NCBI GenBank assembly: GCA_016866975.1
Contig: VGKP01000004.1
Span: forward strand, 1 to 47,901
Length of the DNA: 47,901 nt
Direction of reading: 5' to 3'
From: Candidatus Pacearchaeota archaeon
GTDB lineage: Archaea > Nanobdellota > Nanobdellia > Pacearchaeales > GW2011-AR1
Shown: piece after piece, positions 75 through 25,508 of the stretch
How positions within the stretch are numbered: the stretch's first letter is position 1
Layout of the letters: each line of letters starts with the position of its first letter
Notes under the pieces: generated by a model
What the model saw: the letters and a program-made list of their open reading frames with translations, nothing else
Database searches by the model: none
Told to the model about the DNA's origin: nothing
Position numbers and translations under genes: made by a program

Positions 75-88
75 TTTTGTGAAGAAAA

Positions 89-175
89 GCCTCTGGGGGG
101 AATTGAACCCCCGACCTCAAGTTTCTTCGACAACTGATACGAAACTTGCGCTCTGACCAACTGAGCTACAGAGGC
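89..175 (-). tRNA. tRNA-Thr(CGU) with a 14-nt intron at canonical position 37/38 (124-137)
   Basis: Reverse complement folds as a cloverleaf: acceptor GCCTCTG/CAGAGGC, D stem GCTC/GAGC, anticodon stem CAAGT/ACTTG around TT-CGT-A, T arm GGGGG-TTCAATT-CCCCC. Intron CGAA pairs with TTCG (positions 32-35), giving a bulge-helix-loop splice motif. No encoded CCA. Confidence 0.95.
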
Positions 176-7985: not shown

Positions 7986-8054
7986 ATAAACCCATAAGAG
8001 GAGGTCCCATCCTTCAAAAAGAGTGATGAAGCGTCCTCTTCTGGGGAAAAGAGG
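7986..8054 (-). ncRNA. 69-bp direct repeat copy 1; candidate small RNA gene or attachment site
   Basis: 67/69 identical to 11238-11306. Minus-strand TATA (plus tatttaag 8080-8087) lies 26 nt from the repeat edge, the same spacing as copy 2. 5' hairpin CCTCTT/AAGAGG. Confidence 0.5.
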
Positions 8055-8156
8055 TGTTATTATAATGATGGAAATTGGCTATTTAAGGGTTATGGAGGAT
8101 GAATCTTGAGGAGAAATCTTGGTTAAAAAGAGGTTTTGAAGATTAAACGAACTATT

Positions 8157-8447
8157 TTAATCTGAACCGGTCTCATCATGTCGCCAAATTTTTTCTCTAG
8201 ATCTAGATTTAAGGATTTTTCCGAGAGGGCTCTCGGGAGGAACACGAGAAAGTTCGTCCTCTGCAGCGAGGGGAAGAGAGCCTATTCCACAATCAATGCA
8301 GCACCATCCTCCGTAATACTCTCCAGTATGAACATTATAATAAGTTCCGTAGAGAGTCATATTTTCAAAACGTGTAGGGTGAAAAAATTGTTTTCCATCA
8401 TCCGACTTATAAATTGATCTTAGAGGATGTTCTGGACTGTTTGACAT
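8157..8447 (-). CDS. Hypothetical protein (96 aa, CxxC)
   Basis: ORF with TATA (plus tatttaaa 8470-8477) 23 nt upstream of the ATG. Confidence 0.65.
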   Translation of the reverse strand: MSNSPEHPLRSIYKSDDGKQFFHPTRFENMTLYGTYYNVHTGEYYGGWCCIDCGIGSLPLAAEDELSRVPPESPLGKILKSRSREKIWRHDETGSD

Positions 8448-8529
8448 TTTACTTTTATTAATGAAGGAGTATTTAAAGTTTTAGATAACGGTCTATGCTT
8501 TTTTGAGATTAGGGAATTTTTATTTGGTG

Positions 8530-8585
8530 TCAAGAATTGCTATTCTTGATCGTGATCAAGAACTGAAGAATCTGGCGGTTCTTGA
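8530..8585. repeat. Twin TCAAGAA/TTCTTGA hairpins (Q-family related)
   Basis: tcaagaat-tgct-attcttga (8530-8549) and tcaagaac...gttcttga (8556-8585). Confidence 0.65.
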
Positions 8586-8600
8586 CGTTAAACGAACTAT

Positions 8601-8963
8601 TTATTTTGATTCTTTGAAAGGTGCTGAGTGGCGATCTAAGAAGGTCGCTTTGTAAAATTGAACTGTGTATGTGGTTTGTGTTGGGCCGTCTTCATAAGAG
8701 CCTTTAGAACAAGTATAGGCATTAACTGTCCGAGGCGATTTTCCAGATTTTTGCTCTGCCCATCGCGCTAATGAGTTCAATCTTTTTCTCAAGGTCTTTC
8801 TATTTGCTTCAAGTGTTGGTTCGTGGTCGAGACTAAAAGATTCTGGGAATCCTACTGGAGTGGCAAATGCAAAGATTTCTTCTCCTTTTAGATTTTCGGC
8901 AAAGAAGTAATTTCTATCTCCACTTGGGTAGATAATCTCTCTAAGTCTTGGTGTTCGATGCAT
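8601..8963 (-). CDS. Hypothetical protein (about 120 aa)
   Basis: The ORF-track start 8993 lies inside a repeat element; ATG 8963 (MHRTPRL) is more plausible. Confidence 0.65.
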   Translation of the reverse strand: MHRTPRLREIIYPSGDRNYFFAENLKGEEIFAFATPVGFPESFSLDHEPTLEANRKTLRKRLNSLARWAEQKSGKSPRTVNAYTCSKGSYEDGPTQTTYTVQFYKATFLDRHSAPFKESK

Positions 8964-8970
8964 GATTTTA

Positions 8971-9094
8971 TCATCAAAAAAACGATGCGCCACTGTGGCT
9001 TAAACGCCGCAGTTTGATGCAGGCGCTCGTTTTTTGGATGCTCAAGGAACAACTCCAGCTTAAAAGCTGGAGTTTTAGTCAAGTTCCTTGACAT
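8971..9094 (-). repeat. R-family bipartite structured element, divergent copy
   Basis: Same architecture and linkers as 33907-34025 and 39730-39848, with compensatory stem changes. Confidence 0.85.
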
Positions 9095-9183
9095 AAAAAT
9101 TGCCTATTTAAGTTTTTCTGTTTGAAAAATAGCTAAAAATTGGTTAAAACGGCGGTTAATATAGATTATGCGAACTAATTGGT

Positions 9184-9408
9184 TTATTTATGATTAACCG
9201 AGAAAATTTGTAGCAAATTATTAAGATGATACTTAAGAATACCTTCTCTCAAATCATTCCCCTCTTCTCCGTCAAGATCCTTGCTTCCTGCTTGTTTACG
9301 AAAAGCAATAATATCTTGAAAGTGAGCATCGGCTAATTTTGTTCCTGTCTCTAGAATATTCAAATATATTTGAAAGGTTTGCTTTTTAGGGGCAATAACC
9401 TTTATCAT
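9184..9408 (-). CDS. Hypothetical protein (74 aa)
   Basis: ORF co-oriented with its neighbours and followed by the array motif; no recognisable domain. Confidence 0.55.
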   Translation of the reverse strand: MIKVIAPKKQTFQIYLNILETGTKLADAHFQDIIAFRKQAGSKDLDGEEGNDLREGILKYHLNNLLQIFSVNHK

Positions 9409-9470
9409 CTCTGCTAAACCCTTAAATATAGAATGATGAATTTTCTAATTTATTTAAAGATTTGTATGAT

Positions 9471-9553
9471 CGGGCGTGTTCGGCGCTTCGCGCCTCACCT
9501 ATGTTTGAGGTTATTGTTTTAGACTTTGCCTGAGCCTTATACTTAAACGAACC
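9471..9553. repeat. S-family element: GC hairpin + TTGARGTTATTGTTTTAGA + TTAAACGAAC
   Basis: Collinear with 10535-10616 (83 vs 82 nt). Confidence 0.7.
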
Positions 9554-9592
9554 TTGTTGTTATGCTGAAAGTTATTGTAGATAGCTAAAAGA

Positions 9593-9769
9593 TTAAGCGG
9601 AGTGATTTCTACGGTAAAGATCGAGAATTCCCGTAATCAAAAGAAAAAGACCAACAGTGATCGCGAGTATATTTGGCCATATGAGGATGATTAATCCAAC
9701 AATGATTGAAAGTACAGACGTTAAATCTTGAGTGTTTGTGCTGTTTGAGTTGTTTGTTTTTTTAGGCAT
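9593..9769 (-). CDS. Small 2-TM protein resembling DUF3096 (58 aa; absent from the ORF track)
   Basis: Hand translation MPKKTNNSNSTNTQDLTSVLSIIVGLIILIWPNILAITVGLFLLITGILDLYRRNHSA; TATA (plus tttttata 9791-9798) 22 nt upstream. Confidence 0.75.
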   Translation of the reverse strand: MPKKTNNSNSTNTQDLTSVLSIIVGLIILIWPNILAITVGLFLLITGILDLYRRNHSA

Positions 9770-10040
9770 AGGTGTTTAAGAAAAAGAAAGTTTTTATACT
9801 TTTTGACGATTATGTATAAACACCATCTACTTTCATGTCTTATTGCTAACTTTTTCCGATGCAGTAAAATAATAGGTGATGCTATTGGTGTTCAAAGGCG
9901 TTTAAGATTTGGTAATTGCGGCGTTTTGAGCGAGAGGTTTATACTGAGGAGAAGAGAAAGGCATCATCGTTAGGTTTAATGTCTGCATAAACGAGGCAAT
10001 CGTGTCTCTGATGCAATTAATGCGAACTTATTTATAAAAG

Positions 10041-10068
10041 AGTTCGTATAAGGTAGCTTGTACGAAGT
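10041..10068. other. dif/lox-like tyrosine recombinase site (11-6-11)
   Basis: AGTTCGTATAA-GGTAGC-TTGTACGAAGT; the arms are inverted repeats (9/11 match). Confidence 0.6.
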
Positions 10069-10094
10069 ATTTTTTGGTTTATTAATGCGAATTT

Positions 10095-10496
10095 TTAGAA
10101 ACCGAGATTTTTCATATCTGTATATCCCCAATATCCGTTTTGCTTGTCTTCCTGTACTAATTGAGGAATTATATTTTCTAGAGAACGTGCAAGAGCTCTT
10201 CCTGAGTCTGTAAGGAGATAACCTATCTTATCCTCGCTTTCTCTCGCGCCCCGTATTCGTGCTTGACTCGCCATCCCTCGCCTTACTGCCTCTTGCAACA
10301 TGAATGCGCAATCCATATACTCTCGTTTATTTTTTGTTTCCCTGTATTTATTTAATCCTAACAGCTCCACTTTAACGCTGCCTGGAAAGTACGCCTCGTG
10401 AATAAATTTCTGAGTTGGTTCTTCTTTGGCTTTTTGCTCAAGACAATGGAGTGCATAAATACACGCATTAAATTTCTGCTGGTTGGTGTTAATCAT
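10095..10496 (-). CDS. Hypothetical protein, possibly winged-helix
   Basis: C-terminal GYLLTDSGRAL resembles a wHTH wing; TATA (plus tatttaac 10518-10525) 22 nt upstream. Confidence 0.65.
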   Translation of the reverse strand: MINTNQQKFNACIYALHCLEQKAKEEPTQKFIHEAYFPGSVKVELLGLNKYRETKNKREYMDCAFMLQEAVRRGMASQARIRGARESEDKIGYLLTDSGRALARSLENIIPQLVQEDKQNGYWGYTDMKNLGF

Positions 10497-10534
10497 TTTT
10501 TTAGAGATAAGGGGAGGTATTTAACTCTTTCTGT

Positions 10535-10616
10535 CGGGCGCGGTCGCGCCTGCGGCGCTCCTGGAGTTGAAGTTATTGTTTTAGATGTGGGGTGTGAGGA
10601 GAGATTAATACGAACT
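10535..10616. repeat. S-family element, second copy
   Basis: cgggcg + ggcgcggtcgcgcc hairpin + ttgaagttattgttttaga + ttaatacgaact. Confidence 0.7.
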
Positions 10617-10868
10617 TTAATGCTTGTAAATGTTCTTTCTATGCCCTATTTCGATGAGAAGAATGATAAGATTGCTCTCAATGATATCGAGAATTATTCG
10701 ATAGTCTCCTACGCGCAACTTAAATCCTGGTTCTCCGACTAGTTTTTCAACAAAATCTTGTGGACGAATCTTGATGCGTTCAAGGACAGAGATGATTCTT
10801 TCTTGGATTGATTTGTCCAGGTTTTTTAGTTGCCTTTCGACTTTATTAGGTATAATAATACTATACAT
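10617..10868 (-). CDS. relE: RelE/StbE-family type II toxin
   Basis: 83 aa with KLRVGDYRII and IEIGHRKNIY; start overlaps the antitoxin stop (TAATG). Confidence 0.92.
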   Translation of the reverse strand: MYSIIIPNKVERQLKNLDKSIQERIISVLERIKIRPQDFVEKLVGEPGFKLRVGDYRIILDIIESNLIILLIEIGHRKNIYKH

Positions 10869-11089
10869 TATGGGTCTAGATCTTCCTTCACTTGCTCGAA
10901 GGTTTTGTATTTGCCCTCGTTATATTCTTGTCGAGATTGAGCGATGCTTTTTTTCGTTTCTTCTGATAATTCAAGGCGATCTTCGATGAGATCCCAGAGA
11001 AGGTCTTCATAACTTTCCTTCTCGTGTAGTTTCATTACTTTGAGTTTGGCAAGGAGCTCAGTGCTCACTTGGATGGTGGTTTCTGCCAT
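10868..11089 (-). CDS. Cognate antitoxin (N-terminal RHH-like)
   Basis: TTIQVS N-terminal strand, acidic C-terminus, directly upstream of the toxin. Confidence 0.85.
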   Translation of the reverse strand: MAETTIQVSTELLAKLKVMKLHEKESYEDLLWDLIEDRLELSEETKKSIAQSRQEYNEGKYKTFEQVKEDLDP

Positions 11090-11094
11090 AATTA

Positions 11095-11119
11095 ATATAT
11101 ACTTGGCTATAGTATATAT
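11095..11119. promoter_or_regulatory. Inverted-repeat operator over the TA promoter
   Basis: atatatact-N7-agtatatat immediately upstream of the antitoxin ATG, overlapping the TATA box. Confidence 0.6.
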
Positions 11120-11237
11120 AGTTTTCTCTCGTGCTTAAGAATTCTGGTTGTGCTTAAAAGATTGAGCTTGATTTTTGACGTTAATGTTTGTGGTGTTTAA
11201 AAAAATAGTAGTGGCCCTGATGACTACAATAGGCGTC

Positions 11238-11306
11238 ATAAACCCATAAGAGGAGGTCCCATCCATCAAAAAGAGTGATGAAACGTCCTCTTCTGGGGAA
11301 AAGAGG
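11238..11306 (-). ncRNA. 69-bp direct repeat copy 2; candidate small RNA gene or attachment site
   Basis: TATA (plus tatttaaa 11332-11339) 26 nt from the repeat edge; a T-run follows on the minus strand near 11200. Confidence 0.5.
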
Positions 11307-11574: not shown

Positions 11575-12219
11575 ATGTTTGGTTGGTTATTCAAAAATAG
11601 AGAAAAAGAGAATGGTGATGAAATTCGAGAAAGCTTTTCTGCTGTAAAAAAAGACATGGATGTTGTAGGAAAGTGGATCAAACACCTTGATGGAGCAGAT
11701 AAACAGCTGTTTTCTATATTAAATTCAATAAAGTCTGATTTATCGAATATAAAAAATGAAATTGGAATAATAAGGGAAGAGGTTGATGCGATGAAGGAAG
11801 GCCATAATCATCAACAGGTGTTTGAAAATTTGCCTGTTTTAGGTAAACAAACAGGTGATGAAGATGTTTATACGGCTGTTCAAACGCCTGTTCAAACAGG
11901 TAATTTTTATGAGATTTTTAAGGGTTTAACCCCTCATGAGAGAGCATTGATATTTACATTAATGAATAGTGATCTAAAACTAAGTTATGAAGATTTGGCT
12001 TTGTTGATGGGGAAGGAAAAGTCAACGGTTAGAGGGCAAATAAATGCAATAAAGCAGAAGAGTGAGGGGCTGATTGAGGAGATTACAGAGAAAAATGGGA
12101 AAAAAAGAGTGTTTGTACCCCTAGAAATTAAGGAAAAACTGTCAAAATACGCAAAAGTGAGAGTTGGTAAAAAGAAGAAAGTTCGCGTTAATGCTGTTTC
12201 TGAGGAGAATTTGTCATGA
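11575..12219 (+). CDS. Coiled-coil / winged-helix DNA-binding protein (paralog A)
   Basis: N-terminal heptads, VQTPVQT linker, C-terminal HTH (LSYEDLALLMGKEKSTVRGQINAIK) plus wing. Confidence 0.8.
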   Translation: MFGWLFKNREKENGDEIRESFSAVKKDMDVVGKWIKHLDGADKQLFSILNSIKSDLSNIKNEIGIIREEVDAMKEGHNHQQVFENLPVLGKQTGDEDVYTAVQTPVQTGNFYEIFKGLTPHERALIFTLMNSDLKLSYEDLALLMGKEKSTVRGQINAIKQKSEGLIEEITEKNGKKRVFVPLEIKEKLSKYAKVRVGKKKKVRVNAVSEENLS

Positions 12220-12416: not shown

Positions 12417-12508
12417 CAAATAAATGATTTGATTGACCTTAATCGGATAACCGAATATCTATATCATTTTTAAGAGAGTTAGAGAGAGAAAATTGGTTAA
12501 ACGTACTT

Positions 12509-13429
12509 TTAGATGTCTCTGAGCTGGAAAATTGTGGGAAGAGAGGCTATTTTTTTAAGATCTGGAGAGATCTGAAGTATAATCTTCTTGTTATTTTCCT
12601 TAGTTTTAAGAATAGGTGAGCCTTTTTTAATGAGTTTTTGTACGTAATCACGTATAGAGCTCTCGGTCAAAGAGAGTTTTTGGGCTAAGAGAGGATAATC
12701 TACTGTAAATCCTTGTTCTTCTAATTGATAAATTGCAGAGAATACTTCCATCTCTTGTTTTGTGAGCCTCTTGAATTTTAAACGAACTTCTTTCTTTGCT
12801 TGATCTAGAGTCTCTAAGGCTTCTGAGATCTCGAATAGGTGCTGGAATGTGTGTTCTTGAGGGGTTCTAGAACCGATTTTTGTGTGTAAATGGATGTGCT
12901 GGTCTGTCTGCTGGTCTGTCTGTCTGTCTGCTGGAACCCCATCATTTCCACTGGAAACCATTGATTTTATGCCTTTTAGGACGTATTGATGTGGTTTTTG
13001 TGCTGGAATGCTGGAATTGGTGTGCTGGAATGCTGGGTTTTCTGGATTTTGTGCTGGAATAAGTGTGTTGGTCTGTCTGTCTGCTGAAGAGAACCTAGGT
13101 TCTCTCTCAACACTCTCCTCTTTTGATGAAGGGAAACTAAAATCTTTCTCAACACTCTCCTTCCTAAGGAAACCTTGGTTTCCTTGTGGGTCAACCTTCC
13201 TTTCAACAGGCCCTCCTGAAGGGAAACTAAAATCTTTCTCAACACTCTCCTTCCTAAGGAAACAAAGGTTTCCTTGTGGGTCAACCTTCCTTTCAACACT
13301 CTCCTCTTTTAGGATATCATCTAGTGTCTGTCTTAAGAAAGAAGTTTCTTCATTGAGAAAGGCTATTTGATCTTTGAGGTATTGAATATCTGCCTTTGCT
13401 TTCGCGAAGGCTTCTTTGATTGGGTCCAT
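12509..13429 (-). CDS. Coiled-coil / winged-helix DNA-binding protein (paralog B) with an in-frame repeat insertion
   Basis: N-terminal heptads, QTD-rich linker, C-terminal HTH (YPLLAQKLSLTESSIRDYVQKLIKKG); same layout as paralog A. Confidence 0.8.
   Translation of the reverse strand: MDPIKEAFAKAKADIQYLKDQIAFLNEETSFLRQTLDDILKEESVERKVDPQGNLCFLRKESVEKDFSFPSGGPVERKVDPQGNQGFLRKESVEKDFSFPSSKEESVEREPRFSSADRQTNTLIPAQNPENPAFQHTNSSIPAQKPHQYVLKGIKSMVSSGNDGVPADRQTDQQTDQHIHLHTKIGSRTPQEHTFQHLFEISEALETLDQAKKEVRLKFKRLTKQEMEVFSAIYQLEEQGFTVDYPLLAQKLSLTESSIRDYVQKLIKKGSPILKTKENNKKIILQISPDLKKIASLPTIFQLRDI
12936..12958 (-). promoter_or_regulatory. ORB-like box (origin recognition box) inside the CDS
   Basis: GTTTCCAGTGGAAATGATGGGGT: TTCCAGTGGAA dyad plus G-string, matching the archaeal ORB consensus. 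Confidence 0.65.
13084..13308. repeat. P-family hairpin mosaic inserted in frame in the CDS (contains a 90-bp period duplication)
   Basis: Modules gaagagaacc-NN-ggttctc, tcaacactctcc and ccttgtgggtcaaccttcc also occur intergenically at 33.7-33.9 and 43.3 kb. Confidence 0.85.
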
Positions 13430-19231: not shown

Positions 19232-19291
19232 CTAGAATATCGATATGTTTATAAGAATGATAGACTAGCAAATATGATAAAAGGGTGTAAT

Positions 19292-20494
19292 ATGGATAAA
19301 TTAGATAAGATATTTAGTTCTTTCATTTCGAATAACTTATTTAAAAATAAATCAGTATTGCAATCTAATTATAGTCCCGAGCAGATTACTCATAGGGAAG
19401 CACAAATAGAATCTGTTGCTTCAATATTGGCCCCCGCATTACGAGGGGAGAGAGTTAGCAACTTGTTCATATACGGGAATACTGGAAGCGGAAAAACTCT
19501 AAGTGTAAGATATGTGAGAGATAAAATACTTGAGAAATTGCAGGAGCTTGGAGGAGATTATCTACAGTTCATATATGTAAACTGTAAATTGAAGAAGGTA
19601 GCAGATACGGAGTATAGGATCGTTGCAGAGATGATACATGAGTTGAAAGGAAGCATTCCTGCAACAGGATTGCCAACCGACCAAGTATATCTTAAATTTA
19701 TTGAAATGATAGATGTTAAAAAGCAAGTGATAATAATTATATTAGATGAGATTGACGAAGCAGTAAAGAAGATATCTGATAGGTTCATATATACTCTCAC
19801 TAGATTAAACTCTGAGTTGAAAAATGCGCAGATAAGCATAATAGGTATAAGCAATAGTCTCACATTCATGGACCATTTGGATCCTAGAGTGAGAAGTTCT
19901 CTGAGTGAAGAAGAACTTGTCTTTCCTTCCTATAATGCGTTGCAGCTACAAGATATTTTGAGAGTAAGAGCGGAGCAGGCGTTCAAGGAAGGAGTGCTGG
20001 AAGAGGGAGTGATAGAAAAATGCGCGGCTTATGCCGCGAGAGAGCACGGAGATGCGAGAAGGGCACTTGATTTATTGAGGGTCGCGGGAGAAATATCAGA
20101 AAGGGAGGAGGGGACCAAGATAAAAGTAGAACATATAGACTCTGCAAACCAGAAAATAGAGAAAGACAAGATGCTTGATATAGTGGAGAAAGTTCCCAAG
20201 CAGTTTCAATTAGTTTTGGCTGCGGCACTCTCACTGCATAAAAATAAGATTGAGGAGATATTTACAGGAGATGTATACAACACTTATCAGGATCTGTGCC
20301 AAAAGACCAGAAATGAGGTCCTTACGCAGAGGAGAGTGTCTGATATTCTTGCTGAGTTCGATATGCTTGGCTTAATAAACACAAGAGTCATAAGCAAAGG
20401 CAGGCAGGGAAGGACACGAGAAATAAAACTTATGCTGCCTGGACCAATTCAAGATAAAGCGGAGGAGATACTTCAGAAGTCTTTGTATCTATAA
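19292..20494 (+). CDS. cdc6: Orc1/Cdc6 replication initiator
   Basis: Walker A GNTGSGKT, Walker B LDEID, GDARRALDLLR and a C-terminal wHTH. AAGGGTG SD favours ATG 19292 over 19274. Confidence 0.96.
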   Translation: MDKLDKIFSSFISNNLFKNKSVLQSNYSPEQITHREAQIESVASILAPALRGERVSNLFIYGNTGSGKTLSVRYVRDKILEKLQELGGDYLQFIYVNCKLKKVADTEYRIVAEMIHELKGSIPATGLPTDQVYLKFIEMIDVKKQVIIIILDEIDEAVKKISDRFIYTLTRLNSELKNAQISIIGISNSLTFMDHLDPRVRSSLSEEELVFPSYNALQLQDILRVRAEQAFKEGVLEEGVIEKCAAYAAREHGDARRALDLLRVAGEISEREEGTKIKVEHIDSANQKIEKDKMLDIVEKVPKQFQLVLAAALSLHKNKIEEIFTGDVYNTYQDLCQKTRNEVLTQRRVSDILAEFDMLGLINTRVISKGRQGRTREIKLMLPGPIQDKAEEILQKSLYL

Positions 20495-20497
20495 GAC

Positions 20498-22060
20498 ATG
20501 CATGAAGAATTGCTCCATCTTATAAGAGAAAAAGGCTTATTGTTAGAGAGAGAAATATTTGAATTACTCAATAGTTTTGATAACTTGCAGGCAGCAAAAG
20601 ATTTTTTGGAAGGGATTGAGAGATATTCTGGGCAAAAAATGATAACTCGATCTCTATTACACAACAACTCCTCTTATATCCAACAAGTAGTCTCAAAACT
20701 TCCTGGAAAAGATAAGGCTATGGTTGAACATACATTTGTAAATCTCGGAGTACACCTCGAAATAAGAAAAGAACAAGTAGTCGTCCCATATTCCTCAAAT
20801 CTTAAAGCGAATAAGTATCAGATATTTACTGCAGACACGAAAACTGATAAGAAACTAGCCGTGTCAGATTTTGTAGGAAACCTCAGGGCGAGATACAGCC
20901 AGATGCAGAGGATATTGATGCAGAGGCCTGACCTGACTAACTTGATGTCAATAGGCAAAATATCTAGCAATAGGCAGCAAGTCAGTGTAATAGGAATGGT
21001 GAGAGAAAAGAGAATTACAAAAAACAAGAATATTGTTCTTTTGATAGAAGACTTGACTGGAGAGATACAAGCATTAGTAAGAGCAGACAAAGAAGAGTTG
21101 GCGACTATTGCAGGAGAGATACAGTTAGATGACGTAATAGCGATAAAGGGATCTGGAAACAGAGATCTGATATTTGCACAAGAGGTCTATTTCCCTGATG
21201 CATTCATCCATGAGAAGATTAAATTTGAAGAAGATATGTGCATTGCCTTTCTTTCTGATTTACACTGTGGAAGTGATAGACATCTTGGAAAAAGCTTACA
21301 GAATTTCTTAGACTGGATACAGAGCGATGATCCGCTTGCGGCAAAAGTTCAGTACATTTTTTTCGTGGGAGACAATGTGGACGGTGTGGGAATATTTCCT
21401 GGGCAAGAAAGTGTTCTTAAACTCAAAAGCATGAAAGAGCAATACGCGTTGTTGGCTTCGTATTTGAGGCAGATACCTAAAAGGATAACAATGTTCATGT
21501 GTCCTGGACAGCACGATGCAGTGAGAGTCGCAGAGCCTCAACCAATCATAGCAAAACATTATGCTCCAGAACTGTATGAAATTGAGAATCTGGTACTTGT
21601 AACAAATCCTACATTAATCAAGTTATTAGAAGCAGAAAAAGAGTTTAAGGTTCTTATGTATCACGGGGCCAGCATACATACATTCATAAGCGAGATACAA
21701 GAGCTTAGACTCATGAAGGCACACAAGACGCCAGCCAAAGCAGTAAGGCACATGCTGAAAAGGAGACATCTTGCCCCAACACATTCTTCTGTGGTATATA
21801 TTCCTTCCCCAGAAAAAGATCCTCTTGTTATAACGGAAGTTCCCGACGTCCTCTGCACAGGAGAGGTTCATAGACTGGATATAGAAAATTATAATGGGGT
21901 GCTTATAGTAACTGGAAGTTGCTGGCAGGCACAAACTCCCTTTGAAGAAAAAGTCGGGAATATACCTGATCCTGCCAAGGTGCCTGTGCTAAACCTTAAA
22001 ACAAGAGAACTAAGAGTATTGGATTTTGGAGATGTTAGCGAGGTGCAGCGTGAAAACTGA
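20498..22060 (+). CDS. polD1: DNA polymerase D small subunit (DP1, proofreading exonuclease)
   Basis: OB fold; SDLHCGS, GDNVDG, PGQHD, HG and HLAPT phosphoesterase motifs; lies between cdc6 and DP2. Confidence 0.95.
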   Translation: MHEELLHLIREKGLLLEREIFELLNSFDNLQAAKDFLEGIERYSGQKMITRSLLHNNSSYIQQVVSKLPGKDKAMVEHTFVNLGVHLEIRKEQVVVPYSSNLKANKYQIFTADTKTDKKLAVSDFVGNLRARYSQMQRILMQRPDLTNLMSIGKISSNRQQVSVIGMVREKRITKNKNIVLLIEDLTGEIQALVRADKEELATIAGEIQLDDVIAIKGSGNRDLIFAQEVYFPDAFIHEKIKFEEDMCIAFLSDLHCGSDRHLGKSLQNFLDWIQSDDPLAAKVQYIFFVGDNVDGVGIFPGQESVLKLKSMKEQYALLASYLRQIPKRITMFMCPGQHDAVRVAEPQPIIAKHYAPELYEIENLVLVTNPTLIKLLEAEKEFKVLMYHGASIHTFISEIQELRLMKAHKTPAKAVRHMLKRRHLAPTHSSVVYIPSPEKDPLVITEVPDVLCTGEVHRLDIENYNGVLIVTGSCWQAQTPFEEKVGNIPDPAKVPVLNLKTRELRVLDFGDVSEVQREN

Positions 22061-25000
22061 GGAATACTTCAATCATATCGAGACAGAAGTTCAGAGATAT
22101 TTTGCTGTCGCAAGACAGGCGAGAAAAGTTGGGATAGATCCTGTGAGCGATGTAGAGATACCTATCGCTATGTCTCTTGCTGAGAAATCCATAGGTCTAA
22201 TATCCACAATATATCCTCAGTTGCAAGATAAAAGAATAATCGACAGAATAATTGAATTAGAGAAGCAATATGGGCAGTTAGATATTGCAGTGGCTTTTGA
22301 GATTGCGGAGGAAATAGCAAGAGAGAAATTCTGTAAGTTTGAAAGCCTTCTTCAAGCAATGGATGCAGGGATAAGAGTCGGTTTTTCATATATAACATTG
22401 GGAGTTGTCTCCTCCCCCATAGAGGGATTTACCGAATTGAAAGTCGGGAAGACAAGAAAAGGGGAAGAGTATCTACAAGCTTATTTTTCAGGACCGATAA
22501 GGAGTGCGGGAACAACCGCTTCTTGTGTAGTGTTAATGCTGATAGATTACATGAGGGAGACATTTGGTTTTGCAACATTTGATCCAGATGAACAAGAAGT
22601 TAAGAGATATGTGACTGAGAACTATGATTATCATGAGAGAGTAAACAACCTGCAATACCTTCCTACAGAGGAAGAGATTGCCTTTCTCGCTGCAAGAATA
22701 CCTATACAAATACATGGAGAGCCAAGCGAAGATAGAGAAGTATCAAACTATAAAGACCTCCAGAGAGTTGAGACCAATTTCATAAGGGGAGGAATGTGCC
22801 TTATTTTTTCTGAAGGCCTTGCACAAAAAGCACAGAAGGGATTTGGATTGTTAAAAGGATTACAAGGAAAAGGATTCAAAGCTACAGGATGGAATTTTTT
22901 GGCAGATTATATAACTCTGCATAAGAAGAGGGAGAAAGGAAGTAGTGAGGCTACTGCAACTTATATTAAGGATCTTGTAGCTGGAAGGCCGGTTTTCGGC
23001 CATCCATCCAAGAGAGGAGGTTTTAGATTCAGATATGGCCGGAGCAGAGTCGGAGGATTCTCTGCAACATCTATTCATCCAGCAACAATGGCATTGTCAG
23101 ATTGTTTTCTGTCTGTAGGTACGCAACTAAAAATAGAGAAGCCCACTAAAGGATGCGCAATATCGATATGTAACAAGATGGATGGGCCAATAGTAAAGTT
23201 GAAGAATGGTAGTGTAAGAAAGGCAGAAGATTTTGAAGAAGCAAAGAAATTGTATGTAGAGACAGAGGAGATATTACATTTCGGAGATCTGCTTGTGTCT
23301 TTGGGTGATGTGATGAATAGAAACTATGAACTTCTTAAGCCAGGATATGTAGAAGAGTGGTGGGATTTGGAGGTTAGAAAAAAAATTGAGGAAAACCCTA
23401 TATTGAAGGCTGCAGAAGATACGTGGAAAGTAACAATTGAAGAGGCTGAAGAGTACTCCTTGAAATTAGGGGTACCTTTGCATCCAAAGTATATCTATTT
23501 CTGGAAAGAGCTTGAATTCCAGCAGTTTTTCTCATTGTTACAATGGATAGGGGAAGGAAAGAATGAAGATGGAAAAATAGTGCTTCCATATAATCAGATG
23601 TTAAGGGAAACAAGATTCAAGGAAAGCAAGAGGGCTCTTGAACTCATTGGATGTGAGCATGAGGTGTTAATAGAACATGTAGTAATATCTAGAGAGAGCA
23701 GCAAAGCCCTTGCATTAAATTTGGGCTTGAATCTTGACGCAGAGAAATTTGGGGCAGACAATATTCTGGCAAAAATAATGGAAGGGGAAGTGCTTGAGCA
23801 AGTGCAGAAAGTGTCTTCATTTATTATAAAAGATAAGTCTGGGACATATATTGGGGCAAGAATGGGCAGACCTGAGAAGGCTAAATTGAGAGAACTTACA
23901 GGCAGCCCACATGTTATATTCCCAGTGGGAGAAGAAGGCGGGAGACTAAGGAGCCTGCAAGCAGCAGTGGAAGTTGGAAATGTGACTGCTGAATTTCCTA
24001 TTTATTACTGTAGCAAATGTACCGAACAGAAAATATATCCGAAATGCGATAAATGCAAGGAATTGTGTCTTAAACTTAGATATTCCCCAAGCCAAGACAA
24101 GGTATTATTTGAAACAAACGAGGTGGAAGGCAGGACGTTAGAATTCAAAGAACAGAATGTAGATGTAAAAACATTGTTTGATCAGGCAAGGAAATTACTC
24201 CAATTAAGGAATGAGGATGTGCCGATGGTAAAGGGAATAAGAGGGACTTCGAGCAAAGACCATAGTTGCGAGTATCTTCCAAAAGGGCTTCTGAGGGCAA
24301 AACATAGACTAAACGTTAACAAAGATGGTACAATAAGATATGATATGACTGAGATGGCAATTACGCATTTTAGGCCAAAGGAGATTGGGACTAATGTTGA
24401 AAAACTGAGAGAGCTAGGCTATGAAGAAGATGTGTATGGGAAAAAGCTAGAGAGTGATGATCAAGTATTGACATTGTTCCCACATGATGTGATACTTCCC
24501 GCATGTCCTGCATCTGATGATGAACCTGCAAATGAAGTGTTTTTTAGGATAGCGAGTTTTGTAGATGACGAGCTTGAAAAACTATATGGGTTGCCAAGGT
24601 TTTTCAATGCATCGACTAAGAACGATCTTGTCGGCGCATTGCTTGTAAACATCGCTCCACATATATGTACTGCCACTGTTGGAAGACTTATAGGATTCTC
24701 AAAAACCCAGACTCAATTGGCGAGTCCTTTCATGCATGCTGCAATGAGAAGAGATTGCGATGGAGATGAAGCCGCATCAATGCTCTTGATGGATTTACTC
24801 CTAAATTTTTCAAGAAAATTCTTGCCTGCGCACAGAGGGGGAACACAAGATGCCCCATTGGTTTTAAATGTTAGGATAAGGGCAGGGGATGTGGATGATC
24901 AGATATTAGACTTTGAGCTTGGAAAGTATCCTTTAGAACTCTATCAATATGCTGAACAAGGGAAACATTCTTCTGAAATGAGGATGATAGTAGATACCGT

Positions 25001-25508
25001 AAGAGGAAGGCTCAAGAATGGTAAAGATCCCTTCTCAAATGTAGATTTCACTCACGATGTAGAAGATTTTAATGGAGGAGTTTTGAATTCTTCTTATAAG
25101 AGACTTCCAACAATGCAGGAGAAAGTAGAAGCAATGATGAATTTATGCTCTAAAATAAGGGCCGTTGATGTGAAAGATGTAGCACGTCTAATAATAGAAA
25201 GGCACTTTATAAGAGACACAAGAGGTAACTTGAGAAAATTCTCAATGCAGGCTTTCAGATGCGTCGGGTGCAATGAAATATACAGGAGACCTCCTCTTGC
25301 AGGCAAATGTCTGGAATGCGGAGGAAGGTTAATATTCACCATATCTGAAGGAAGTATTTTGAAGTATATGCAACCTGCACTGGACATAGCGAGAGAATAT
25401 GAGGTAAGTACTTACTTGTTAGAGTCATTAGAGCTTAACGAAATGTACATACAGAGCATATTTGGGAAGGACAAAGAAAAACAAGAGAGCATTGCTAAAT
25501 GGTTCTAA
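22026..25508 (+). CDS. polD2: DNA polymerase D large subunit (DP2)
   Basis: GPIRSAGTT, catalytic RRDCDGD, Zn fingers and C-terminal PIP box QESIAKWF; no intein; exact start uncertain. Confidence 0.97.
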   Translation: MEMLARCSVKTEEYFNHIETEVQRYFAVARQARKVGIDPVSDVEIPIAMSLAEKSIGLISTIYPQLQDKRIIDRIIELEKQYGQLDIAVAFEIAEEIAREKFCKFESLLQAMDAGIRVGFSYITLGVVSSPIEGFTELKVGKTRKGEEYLQAYFSGPIRSAGTTASCVVLMLIDYMRETFGFATFDPDEQEVKRYVTENYDYHERVNNLQYLPTEEEIAFLAARIPIQIHGEPSEDREVSNYKDLQRVETNFIRGGMCLIFSEGLAQKAQKGFGLLKGLQGKGFKATGWNFLADYITLHKKREKGSSEATATYIKDLVAGRPVFGHPSKRGGFRFRYGRSRVGGFSATSIHPATMALSDCFLSVGTQLKIEKPTKGCAISICNKMDGPIVKLKNGSVRKAEDFEEAKKLYVETEEILHFGDLLVSLGDVMNRNYELLKPGYVEEWWDLEVRKKIEENPILKAAEDTWKVTIEEAEEYSLKLGVPLHPKYIYFWKELEFQQFFSLLQWIGEGKNEDGKIVLPYNQMLRETRFKESKRALELIGCEHEVLIEHVVISRESSKALALNLGLNLDAEKFGADNILAKIMEGEVLEQVQKVSSFIIKDKSGTYIGARMGRPEKAKLRELTGSPHVIFPVGEEGGRLRSLQAAVEVGNVTAEFPIYYCSKCTEQKIYPKCDKCKELCLKLRYSPSQDKVLFETNEVEGRTLEFKEQNVDVKTLFDQARKLLQLRNEDVPMVKGIRGTSSKDHSCEYLPKGLLRAKHRLNVNKDGTIRYDMTEMAITHFRPKEIGTNVEKLRELGYEEDVYGKKLESDDQVLTLFPHDVILPACPASDDEPANEVFFRIASFVDDELEKLYGLPRFFNASTKNDLVGALLVNIAPHICTATVGRLIGFSKTQTQLASPFMHAAMRRDCDGDEAASMLLMDLLLNFSRKFLPAHRGGTQDAPLVLNVRIRAGDVDDQILDFELGKYPLELYQYAEQGKHSSEMRMIVDTVRGRLKNGKDPFSNVDFTHDVEDFNGGVLNSSYKRLPTMQEKVEAMMNLCSKIRAVDVKDVARLIIERHFIRDTRGNLRKFSMQAFRCVGCNEIYRRPPLAGKCLECGGRLIFTISEGSILKYMQPALDIAREYEVSTYLLESLELNEMYIQSIFGKDKEKQESIAKWF

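Follow-up and report, generated by a model that had tools for sequence, protein, structure and literature searches.

A variable array of small genes marked by a putative XerA site arm in a Candidatus Pacearchaeota genome

Contig VGKP01000004.1 of a Candidatus Pacearchaeota metagenome-assembled genome (MAG; GenBank assembly GCA_016866975.1) carries a head-to-tail row of seven small, co-oriented genes, in which six stop codons are followed by copies of one short motif. This arrangement raises the question of how the row was assembled, and whether a site-specific recombinase acting at the motif takes part. An initial annotation, made from the letters alone, had suggested cassettes captured by an archaeal XerA-like recombinase encoded elsewhere. 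The stretch analysed here (the window; 47,901 nt) is contig C4 of the studied genome, G000, which comprises 806 kb in 31 contigs with a G+C content of 39 %. Its relatives are DPANN archaea, represented by MAGs that bear the labels Nanoarchaeota, Pacearchaeota or Woesearchaeota; in what follows, G-numbers denote genomes, and L-numbers denote platform loci or contigs from public genomes or metagenomes. The data presented below indicate that the array is very probably a variable cassette island and that the motif is probably the arm of an XerA site; the case that XerA itself moves the cassettes is evenly balanced.

The motif and its confinement to one locus

The array motif, AGTTCG-Y-N-T(T)-AA, is read on the minus strand and follows the six stop codons at distances of 0-39 nt. 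The coordinates of these six copies were verified against the sequence and the table of open reading frames (ORFs), as were those of an extra copy (10017-10028) and a variant behind a gene encoding a winged helix-turn-helix (wHTH) protein (12497-12507). A regular-expression scan added three copies that the initial annotation had missed, and the motif, although clustered in the block then delimited (7986-11306), was found to run beyond it into a conserved pair of helix-turn-helix (HTH) genes. In relatives, the motif forms the 3′ end of an element of approximately 56 nt whose start coincides with the stop codon or lies close to it; the pyrimidine-rich part of this element, which contains CTTTCAGCA, is referred to as the L element. 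The motif copies of the window are as follows.

8143-8153, minus strand: motif AGTTCGTTTAA, 3 nt past the stop codon of a 96-aa gene; the last motif of the array
8588-8598, minus strand: motif AGTTCGTTTAA, 2 nt past the stop codon of a 120-aa gene
9166-9176, minus strand: motif forming the left arm of a 28-bp site, 7 nt past the stop codon of a 74-aa gene
9543-9595, minus strand: stop codon, L element with CTTTCAGCA and motif GGTTCGTTTAA (9543-9553, the variant GGTTCG, 39 nt past the stop codon); the sole window copy retaining the longer element known from relatives
10017-10028, minus strand: single-arm motif AGTTCGCATTAA, flanking the complete site at 10041-10068
10041-10051, plus strand: left arm of that complete 28-bp site (regular-expression scan)
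10082-10093, minus strand: motif AATTCGCATTAA, variant AATTCG, 1 nt past the stop codon of a 133-aa gene
10605-10616, minus strand: motif AGTTCGTATTAA, abutting the RelE/ParE stop codon (0 nt)
12180-12191, plus strand: inverted copy in the 3′ end of the 214-aa gene F3 (regular-expression scan)
12497-12507, minus strand: variant motif AGTACGTTTAA, 1 nt past the stop codon of the wHTH gene F2
12778-12788, minus strand: copy within the wHTH coding sequence of F2 (regular-expression scan)

The strict motif has ten matches on both strands of the 806-kb genome, whereas base composition predicts approximately 6 genome-wide and 0.04 per 4.7 kb. Since eight of the ten lie within the 4.7-kb span C4:8143-12788, the motif is a marker of this locus and not a genome-wide terminator. 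A sub-pattern of the motif likewise gave three matches in the window against 0.23 expected from shuffled sequences. A general terminator or a signal of 3′ untranslated regions is ruled out by the presence of only two strict matches elsewhere in the genome; nor had the initial annotation seen the motif after stop codons elsewhere in the window.

A DNA search for syntenic loci, which covered 60 relatives, returned two congeners, G008 and G016. Their flanks are as in G000, with HTH genes (the platform) on one side and a hairpin RNA gene plus a RecJ/HAN-like nuclease gene on the other; both have a motif at the position matching 8143-8153, just 5′ of the promoter of the RNA gene at that end (copy B). 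A genus-wide pattern search found one co-oriented motif cluster per genome, always beside the same platform. At 11 loci of the genus, 33 of the 56 intergenic copies lie no more than 60 nt after a co-oriented stop codon, and the distance from the motif to the next ATG is broad (median 145 nt). On the array side of 80 platform loci from public genomes, the array strand carries 78 strict copies and the opposite strand 17, and in the genomes of the family the counts outside the clusters are no higher than those of a reversed-pattern control.

Complete sites, xerA genes and variable gene content

Complete sites were found at two positions of the array, each including a motif copy listed above.

9149-9176, minus strand: asymmetric 28-bp site AGTTCGCATAA-tctata-TTAACCGCCGT, with the motif as its left arm
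10041-10068: complete 11-6-11 inverted site AGTTCGTATAA-ggtagc-TTGTACGAAGT, arms symmetric at 9 of 11 positions; a candidate active Xer-type site of the array

The window sites consist of two inverted 11-bp arms around a 6-bp centre, the 11-6-11 layout shared by dif and other Xer sites (PMC2958812). The site at 9149-9176, of which G016 holds an identical copy, matches Escherichia coli dif at 18 of 28 positions, a likeness to bacterial dif of the order reported for the sites of Thermococcales (PMC2958812); its left arm, the motif, agrees with the XerC arm of E. coli in 9 of 11. When 78 motif instances were examined for an inverted partner arm (at least 8 of 11 positions), a spacer of 6 bp gave five cases and every other length between 0 and 15 gave one at most. 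There is approximately one full site per array, and the sites of G022 and L078 are symmetric at 9 of 11 positions. The central region of the array copies is weakly conserved, as T-T--A. Searched genome-wide, a palindromic-core pattern gave nine matches at a spacer of 6 against 6-12 at other spacers, i.e. no excess; the spacer-6 matches are clustered, two in the array and five on contig C5.

G000 encodes two tyrosine recombinases only (279 and 271 aa), neither of them in the locus; in keeping with the trans-acting recombinase envisaged at the outset, both are of XerA type. The proteins are 39 % identical to each other and pass the XerA_Arch model with 253.8 and 234.3 bits (cut-off 220). The type encoded on contig C7 (type A; C7:16846-17685) is the core XerA of the genus, present in at least 13 of 17 MAGs; the type encoded on C22 is accessory (7 of 17). 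At the C7 gene, a TATA box is followed by a one-mismatch copy of the motif ending 27 nt before the ATG. In G092, G079, G025, G029, G071 and G033, too, xerA has the motif between its TATA box and ATG; the link of the motif to xerA promoters spans at least seven genera in addition to G000's own core gene, and covers two XerA clades with only 45-50 % identity. In G002 and G003, match coordinates place the ends of motif copies 28 and 56 nt before type-A xerA matches. At the 'empty' locus of G022, 800 nt without genes separate the platform from a near-perfect 28-bp site (AGTTCGCATAA-tatacc-TTATACGAACC), behind which xerA lies, and L078, L097, L102 and L104 have one site each between platform and xerA. 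The arm match, the full sites and the copies at xerA promoters all uphold the likeness to a Xer arm that had been noticed at the outset.

The accessory paralogue (C22:9078-9893), which adjoins the SRP54 gene, has a site-like sequence of its own: a near-perfect palindrome, ATGGTATCATAA-atgtaa-TTATGATGCCAT, lies at C22:9948-9977, approximately 55 nt upstream, and occurs in its full two-arm form once in the genome. It is a candidate for the cognate site of that paralogue.

Gene content and order were found to differ between related MAGs, with families recurring in another order. The arrays of G008 and G016 hold approximately 12-13 small genes compared with the seven of G000, many of them in toxin-antitoxin (TA) pairs: Fic/Doc with a ribbon-helix-helix (RHH) protein, PemK/MazF with DUF7557, ParE/RelE, DUF4258 with DUF2283, and PIN-domain toxins with a small upstream partner, which is MazE/AbrB-like in one of two pairs. 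The DUF3096 cassette (family F5) is third in G000, first in G008 and G016, and the last ORF found in the stretches fetched from G001 and G010. The RelBE cassette is first in G000 and last in G008. On metagenome contig Ga0209211_10000306 (locus L170, reverse-complement 871-2113), the RelBE and Fic/RHH cassettes share 80-81 % identity with their G008 counterparts but stand in the opposite order, and the adjacent recJ is only 68 % identical; this hints at an exchange of cassettes between lineages.

It was possible to examine breakpoints in L055 and L058, the only close pair of loci with arrays (87 % identity in the F3 region). The two are homologous across a gene, a motif, an L element and a further motif, and the homology ends exactly at the 3′ end of this last motif; beyond it, the loci differ over 535 and 1345 nt of unrelated sequence before becoming homologous again at the promoter of the next cassette. 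Xer recombinases cleave at the edges of the spacer (PMC8371274). In comparisons of arrays between genomes, high-scoring segment pairs of G008 and G016 that span only L element plus motif end 1-3 nt past the motif, and the blocks of motif and downstream sequence common to G000 and G016 begin 1-3 nt before the motif despite differing upstream genes.

An all-against-all comparison of 81 loci gave no array segment much closer between genomes than the platform gene; the sole hint of recent transfer comes from L170 compared with G008. A scan of IMG/VR for viral vehicles with the L-plus-motif pattern gave 57 single matches, about the estimated chance level and without clustering. An exact-match metagenome scan with the G000-specific copy of the hairpin RNA found no strain variants, and a broader pattern for that RNA found two contigs.

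Established, in sum, are the confinement of the motif, the architecture of the sites, the association with xerA, arrays that vary in content and order, and one breakpoint exactly at an arm-spacer edge. XerA may bind the motif and catalyse the insertion and excision of cassettes, as we infer from the sequences.

Cassettes, linkers and surroundings of the array

The cassettes of G000 and the linker modules of a second kind (S elements) are listed here in order of position.

8157-8447, minus strand: cassette gene, 96 aa, no Pfam family; own TATA box
8601-8963, minus strand: cassette gene, 120 aa, family F20, common to G008; a miniature inverted-repeat transposable element (MITE) lies between TATA box and ATG
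9184-9408, minus strand: cassette gene, 74 aa, no Pfam family
9469-9523, minus strand: S element, a GC-rich hairpin module, between motif and next promoter
9593-9769, minus strand: cassette gene, 58 aa, DUF3096 membrane protein (Pfam), family F5
10095-10496, minus strand: cassette gene, 133 aa, no Pfam family
10533-10584, minus strand: second S element, between motif and next promoter
10617-11089, minus strand: two-gene type II TA cassette, a 73-aa antitoxin (DUF7557/VapB-like) and an 83-aa ParE/RelE toxin

The common orientation of the genes and the RelE TA pair at one end of the array (toxin PF05016, E value 1.8e-8, with its antitoxin) were as first described. Most cassette genes have a TATA-like box, read from the sequence, approximately 20-25 nt ahead of the start codon, in line with the claim that the cassettes carry promoters; their description as single-gene cassettes needs correction, as several contain two genes. 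Pfam and NCBIfam profile searches left four of the window's cassette proteins without a family, and the Pfam search of the block revealed no genes for an integrase, for replication or for structural proteins.

The MITE-like element (8973-9099; approximately 125 bp, two hairpins) has dozens of genomic copies that are 92-99 % identical, plus half-length copies, and several contigs of G000 terminate in it.

S elements, which are found also in the arrays of relatives, combine a conserved AACAATAACYTCAA box with a GC-rich hairpin whose stem covaries (GGCGC-GAA-GCGCC vs GCGCC-GCA-GGCGC). The L-plus-motif element, in contrast, has no conserved secondary structure and so is not attC-like: in 15 aligned elements the consensus folding energy was 0.0, and single-sequence energies were not below those of shuffled sequences. 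No Rfam match was obtained at either the gathering or the E-value thresholds. The L element was also considered as coding sequence of the opposite strand; one copy translates openly, the frame is lost in other copies, and the idea was rejected.

A third genomic copy of the S element adjoins a cluster of sites on C5 (36933-39801), where five 28-bp 11-6-11 sites with arms nnnnCGyyTAA (e.g. ACTGCGTTTAA-tcaccc-TTAAGCGCACC) flank three gene blocks. This cluster looks like a full-site arrangement of the dif-module type.

The platform genes and the copies of the hairpin RNA gene, which correspond to the 69-bp direct repeats that had been taken to bound the block, are as follows.

7986-8054, minus strand: hairpin RNA gene, copy B, at the RecJ-side end of the array
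11238-11306, minus strand: hairpin RNA gene, copy A, at the platform-side end of the array
36456-36530 of contig C7 of G000: third copy of the hairpin RNA gene
11575-12219, plus strand: platform gene F3, 214 aa, coiled coil and HTH, kept across the order
12497-13429, minus strand (coding sequence 12509-13429): platform gene F2, 306 aa, coiled coil and wHTH, with the motif inside the coding sequence and after the stop codon
14448-14738, minus strand: platform gene F1, 96 aa, no Pfam family, beside F2 in all loci of the genus

The repeats are real and 97 % identical. They are ruled out as att sites, being copies of a promoter-bearing hairpin RNA gene that is conserved genus-wide, with a third copy on C7. 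All three copies in G000 are preceded by TTAAATA at a distance of exactly 25 nt. The RNA family, of approximately 70 nt, has a conserved single-stranded 5′ tail, CACCUCUUUUUCCC, and an alignment of 14 sequences gave a consensus hairpin of 17 pairs, five of them with compensatory changes; mismatches were seen in two of 238 pair cells, plus two at alignment gaps. No C/D or H/ACA boxes of guide RNAs were seen in it by eye. Homologues adjoin the HTH platform throughout the genus, although G008 has its array without copy A, and in G001 RNA copies lie inside the array with motifs on both sides.

No platform protein had a match above Pfam's curated cut-off. The internal motif of F2 codes for EVR with a rare CGY arginine codon, which is used in all eight genus genomes that match the coding pattern, against a genome average of 15 %. 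A 90-bp tandem duplication within F2 (13127-13298) gives repeated peptide units, and similar sequence was found on C10, C5, C7 and C2.

The only orc1/cdc6 gene lies approximately 9 kb from the locus, followed by the genes for PolD DP1 and DP2 (window 19274-25508); the platform is 7-9 kb away. GC skew at the locus moves from about 0 to +0.2-0.4, with the shift at approximately 8 kb. Between 11320 and 11560, upstream of the 214-aa HTH gene, there are iteron-like AAACAC repeats and AACAGCTGTTTAAAC palindromes, and the equivalent place of G022 is an 800-nt AT-rich, repeat-laden, gene-free stretch (L030 4372-5160). The proximity of orc1/cdc6, the repeats, the palindromes and the skew shift suggest a candidate oriC beside the array.

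At the start of the window, an 88-nt tRNA (88-175, minus strand; Rfam tRNA, 63 bits) was reported by ARAGORN as 'tRNA-???' with a four-letter anticodon string, and may be intron-containing or otherwise unusual.

Mechanism, alternatives and significance

We lean slightly towards an account in which the core XerA site was turned into a collecting point for self-expressed modules, with XerA acting in trans. The motif would be the conserved arm of the recombination site of the core type-A XerA encoded on C7. The ancestral layout, kept in other genera, would have comprised three HTH genes, a hairpin RNA gene (mostly, in the genus), one 28-bp site and xerA. In the genus, the site would then have become a collecting point at which small promoter-bearing modules, mostly type II TA pairs and tiny membrane proteins, accumulated head to tail, most of them followed by a single site arm while one or two complete sites persisted in the array. 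XerA would recombine a circular module, carrying a site of one arm plus spacer, with the chromosomal site, leaving hybrid sites with one arm conserved, as in integrative mobile elements exploiting Xer recombination (IMEX) of the TLC and gonococcal genetic island (GGI) types. Recombination between co-oriented sites could subsequently delete or reorder modules. It is further possible, if doubtful, that the one-armed dif-like sites and the L element together form cassette-borne sites, and that the HTH/RNA platform, beside the probable replication origin, provides accessory factors and so licenses capture, excision and reordering by the housekeeping XerA, the whole being a counterpart of the integron that works with XerA and without attC.

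Several observations weigh against a XerA-driven origin of the array. Most junctions are single-armed, the 11 nt past the spacer showing neither a conserved TTA nor a partner arm, and we know of no Xer reaction that uses bare half-sites. A rigid recombinase arm would not usually vary in length, yet the motif has either 11 or 12 nt, and in G002, G003, G006 and G008 an L element lacking the motif links some of the cassettes. Breakpoints agreed with the motif in part: the L055/L058 break falls exactly at the motif edge, but the 860 nt (two genes) inserted in L055 have a duplicated 5′ stretch of the L element at their boundaries. The comparison genomes are all at least one species apart, so that recent events are invisible and intergenic DNA is largely randomised. 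At approximately 9 kb from orc1/cdc6, the locus is also unlike a classical terminus dif, known archaeal dif sites lying in termination regions (PMC2958812). Finally, a regulatory or insulating role also fits, because the motif occurs at xerA promoters and in conserved copies around the platform genes.

That last point leads to the strongest alternative, namely that the motif is an operator or boundary, bound by XerA or a platform HTH protein, that represses or insulates the modules, each expressed from its own promoter, and xerA as well, or ends their transcription, while the array, in a region that tolerates change, varies by ordinary recombination, illegitimate or homologous. At the xerA promoters the motif lies between TATA box and ATG, the classic position of archaeal repressors. 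In the arrays it hugs stop codons (0-7 nt at most G000 copies, approximately 45 nt in relatives) and not promoters, and it is intact at half-sites, where a recombination scar should decay. The copies in and after F2 and in F3 are conserved, and this, with the rare arginine codon retained in eight of eight genomes, would fit a regulatory circuit with the platform. An operator, however, leaves unexplained the complete 11-6-11 sites with their fixed 6-bp spacer, the lone complete site next to xerA in relatives devoid of cassettes, and homology that ends exactly at the motif edge. We consider it rather unlikely as the explanation of the array, although regulation is compatible with recombination and the two are not exclusive.

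A second alternative is that the linkers (L, motif and S) are selfish or concerted repeats, and that cassettes are shuffled by homologous recombination or gene conversion with no site-specific recombinase. Because duplicated L sequence borders the insertion in L055, homologous recombination between linkers does contribute. The L-plus-motif copies are also more alike within a genome than between genomes, even for the same cassette family, and one RelBE cassette has its motif 0, 20 or 40 nt behind it in three genomes, which makes the linker host-specific and not cassette-specific; an abundant MITE is present in the genome as well. Yet the 11-12-nt core is kept in G000 where L is lost, and is the very part common to xerA promoters and full sites. 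The repeats (11-56 nt) are short for efficient homologous recombination, and the motif family, unlike a dispersing MITE, is found only at one locus plus xerA. As a complete account, repeats alone are improbable.

The idea that the block is an integrated plasmid or provirus, with the 69-bp repeats as attL and attR, might be drawn from the 97 %-identical direct repeats around 3.2 kb of accessory genes that include a TA pair. It is largely refuted by the nature of the repeats (promoter-bearing hairpin RNA genes with compensatory changes, genus-wide and with a third copy on C7), by the G008 array without copy A and the G001 copies inside the array, by the block's lack of integrase, replication and structural genes, and by the extension of the motif past the repeats, and must be regarded as very improbable. 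A classical integron array without its integrase (a cluster of attC sites lacking integron-integrases, CALIN) with divergent attC sites would account for co-oriented, small, TA-rich cassettes with a repeat after each ORF, and integrons have been reported in DPANN MAGs (PMC9668308), but it is refuted on the defining features tested and hardly credible, given that the repeats have no conserved hairpin (folding as above), no R″/R′ core sites by inspection and no Rfam match, that the cassettes have their own promoters, and that both recombinases are of XerA type and reach only approximately 202 bits, in two separate stretches, with the integron-integrase model TIGR02249 (cut-off 265).

Of the known systems, the array appears to work most like IMEX stacking at dif and the dif modules of Acinetobacter, while its layout recalls chromosomal integrons. 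In common with IMEX such as TLC-phi and the gonococcal GGI (PMC5357621), it would use a host Xer recombinase in trans, retain one arm (there the XerC side) while the other diverges, and stack in tandem. It differs in being archaeal, with XerA; in consisting of gene modules of 0.3-0.8 kb without phage, plasmid or transfer functions; in reaching up to approximately ten units per array, with many junctions that have no recognizable second arm; and in its L element, its HTH/RNA platform and its position near the replication origin. The pdif modules of Acinetobacter (PMC13141974, PMC6449649, PMC12907356) are likewise small, accessory, often TA-encoding, delimited by Xer-type sites and shuffled among replicons or positions, and do not encode the recombinase. 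They have complete 28-bp XerC/XerD sites in alternating orientation, mainly on plasmids, whereas the array is one-armed, co-oriented, chromosomal and associated with XerA; two complete opposed sites per module, as in Acinetobacter, were not found in the array, and C5 has complete sites around gene blocks.

Sedentary chromosomal integrons, archaeal ones included (PMC9668308), also combine a conserved platform with a variable, co-oriented, TA-rich array whose repeats are homogenized within a genome. The array differs from them in its lack of IntI, folded attC and a common Pc promoter, in the TATA box of each cassette and in a recombinase gene that is unlinked in the genus; none of three integron features (an IntI with its extra domain, attC hairpins, mostly promoterless cassettes) was present. 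The proposal of an integron-like system that does not use attC thus stands as regards the Xer-arm element and the absence of a folded repeat and of IntI, and is weakened by the mostly one-armed junctions. With the XerA/dif system of archaeal dimer resolution (PMC2958812), the locus has the XerA family and the 11-6-11 site in common. Classical dif, however, is single, in the termination region and not beside xerA; here, the site stands beside xerA in many relatives and is multiplied as half-sites, and in this fragmented assembly several sites and half-sites lie near orc1/cdc6, approximately 9 kb away.

A literature search for Xer-site cassette arrays in archaea found no publication. To our knowledge, XerA in archaea is known only for the resolution of chromosome dimers, and the known archaeal integrons use IntI and attC. 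If the account favoured here is true, archaea would possess, besides integrons, a second and indigenous way of capturing genes that relies on arms of the XerA site, and DPANN genomes a defined hot spot for acquiring TA and other accessory genes. Should the platform license XerA as tentatively proposed, this would amount to a system dedicated to gene capture in DPANN, and perhaps in further, archaea. The locus offers defined substrates in the 11-12-nt arm, the 28-bp sites and the accessory element, together with a candidate recombinase whose gene has a putative autoregulatory site, and its position beside orc1/cdc6 and the HTH trio may shed light on the control of XerA where FtsK is absent.

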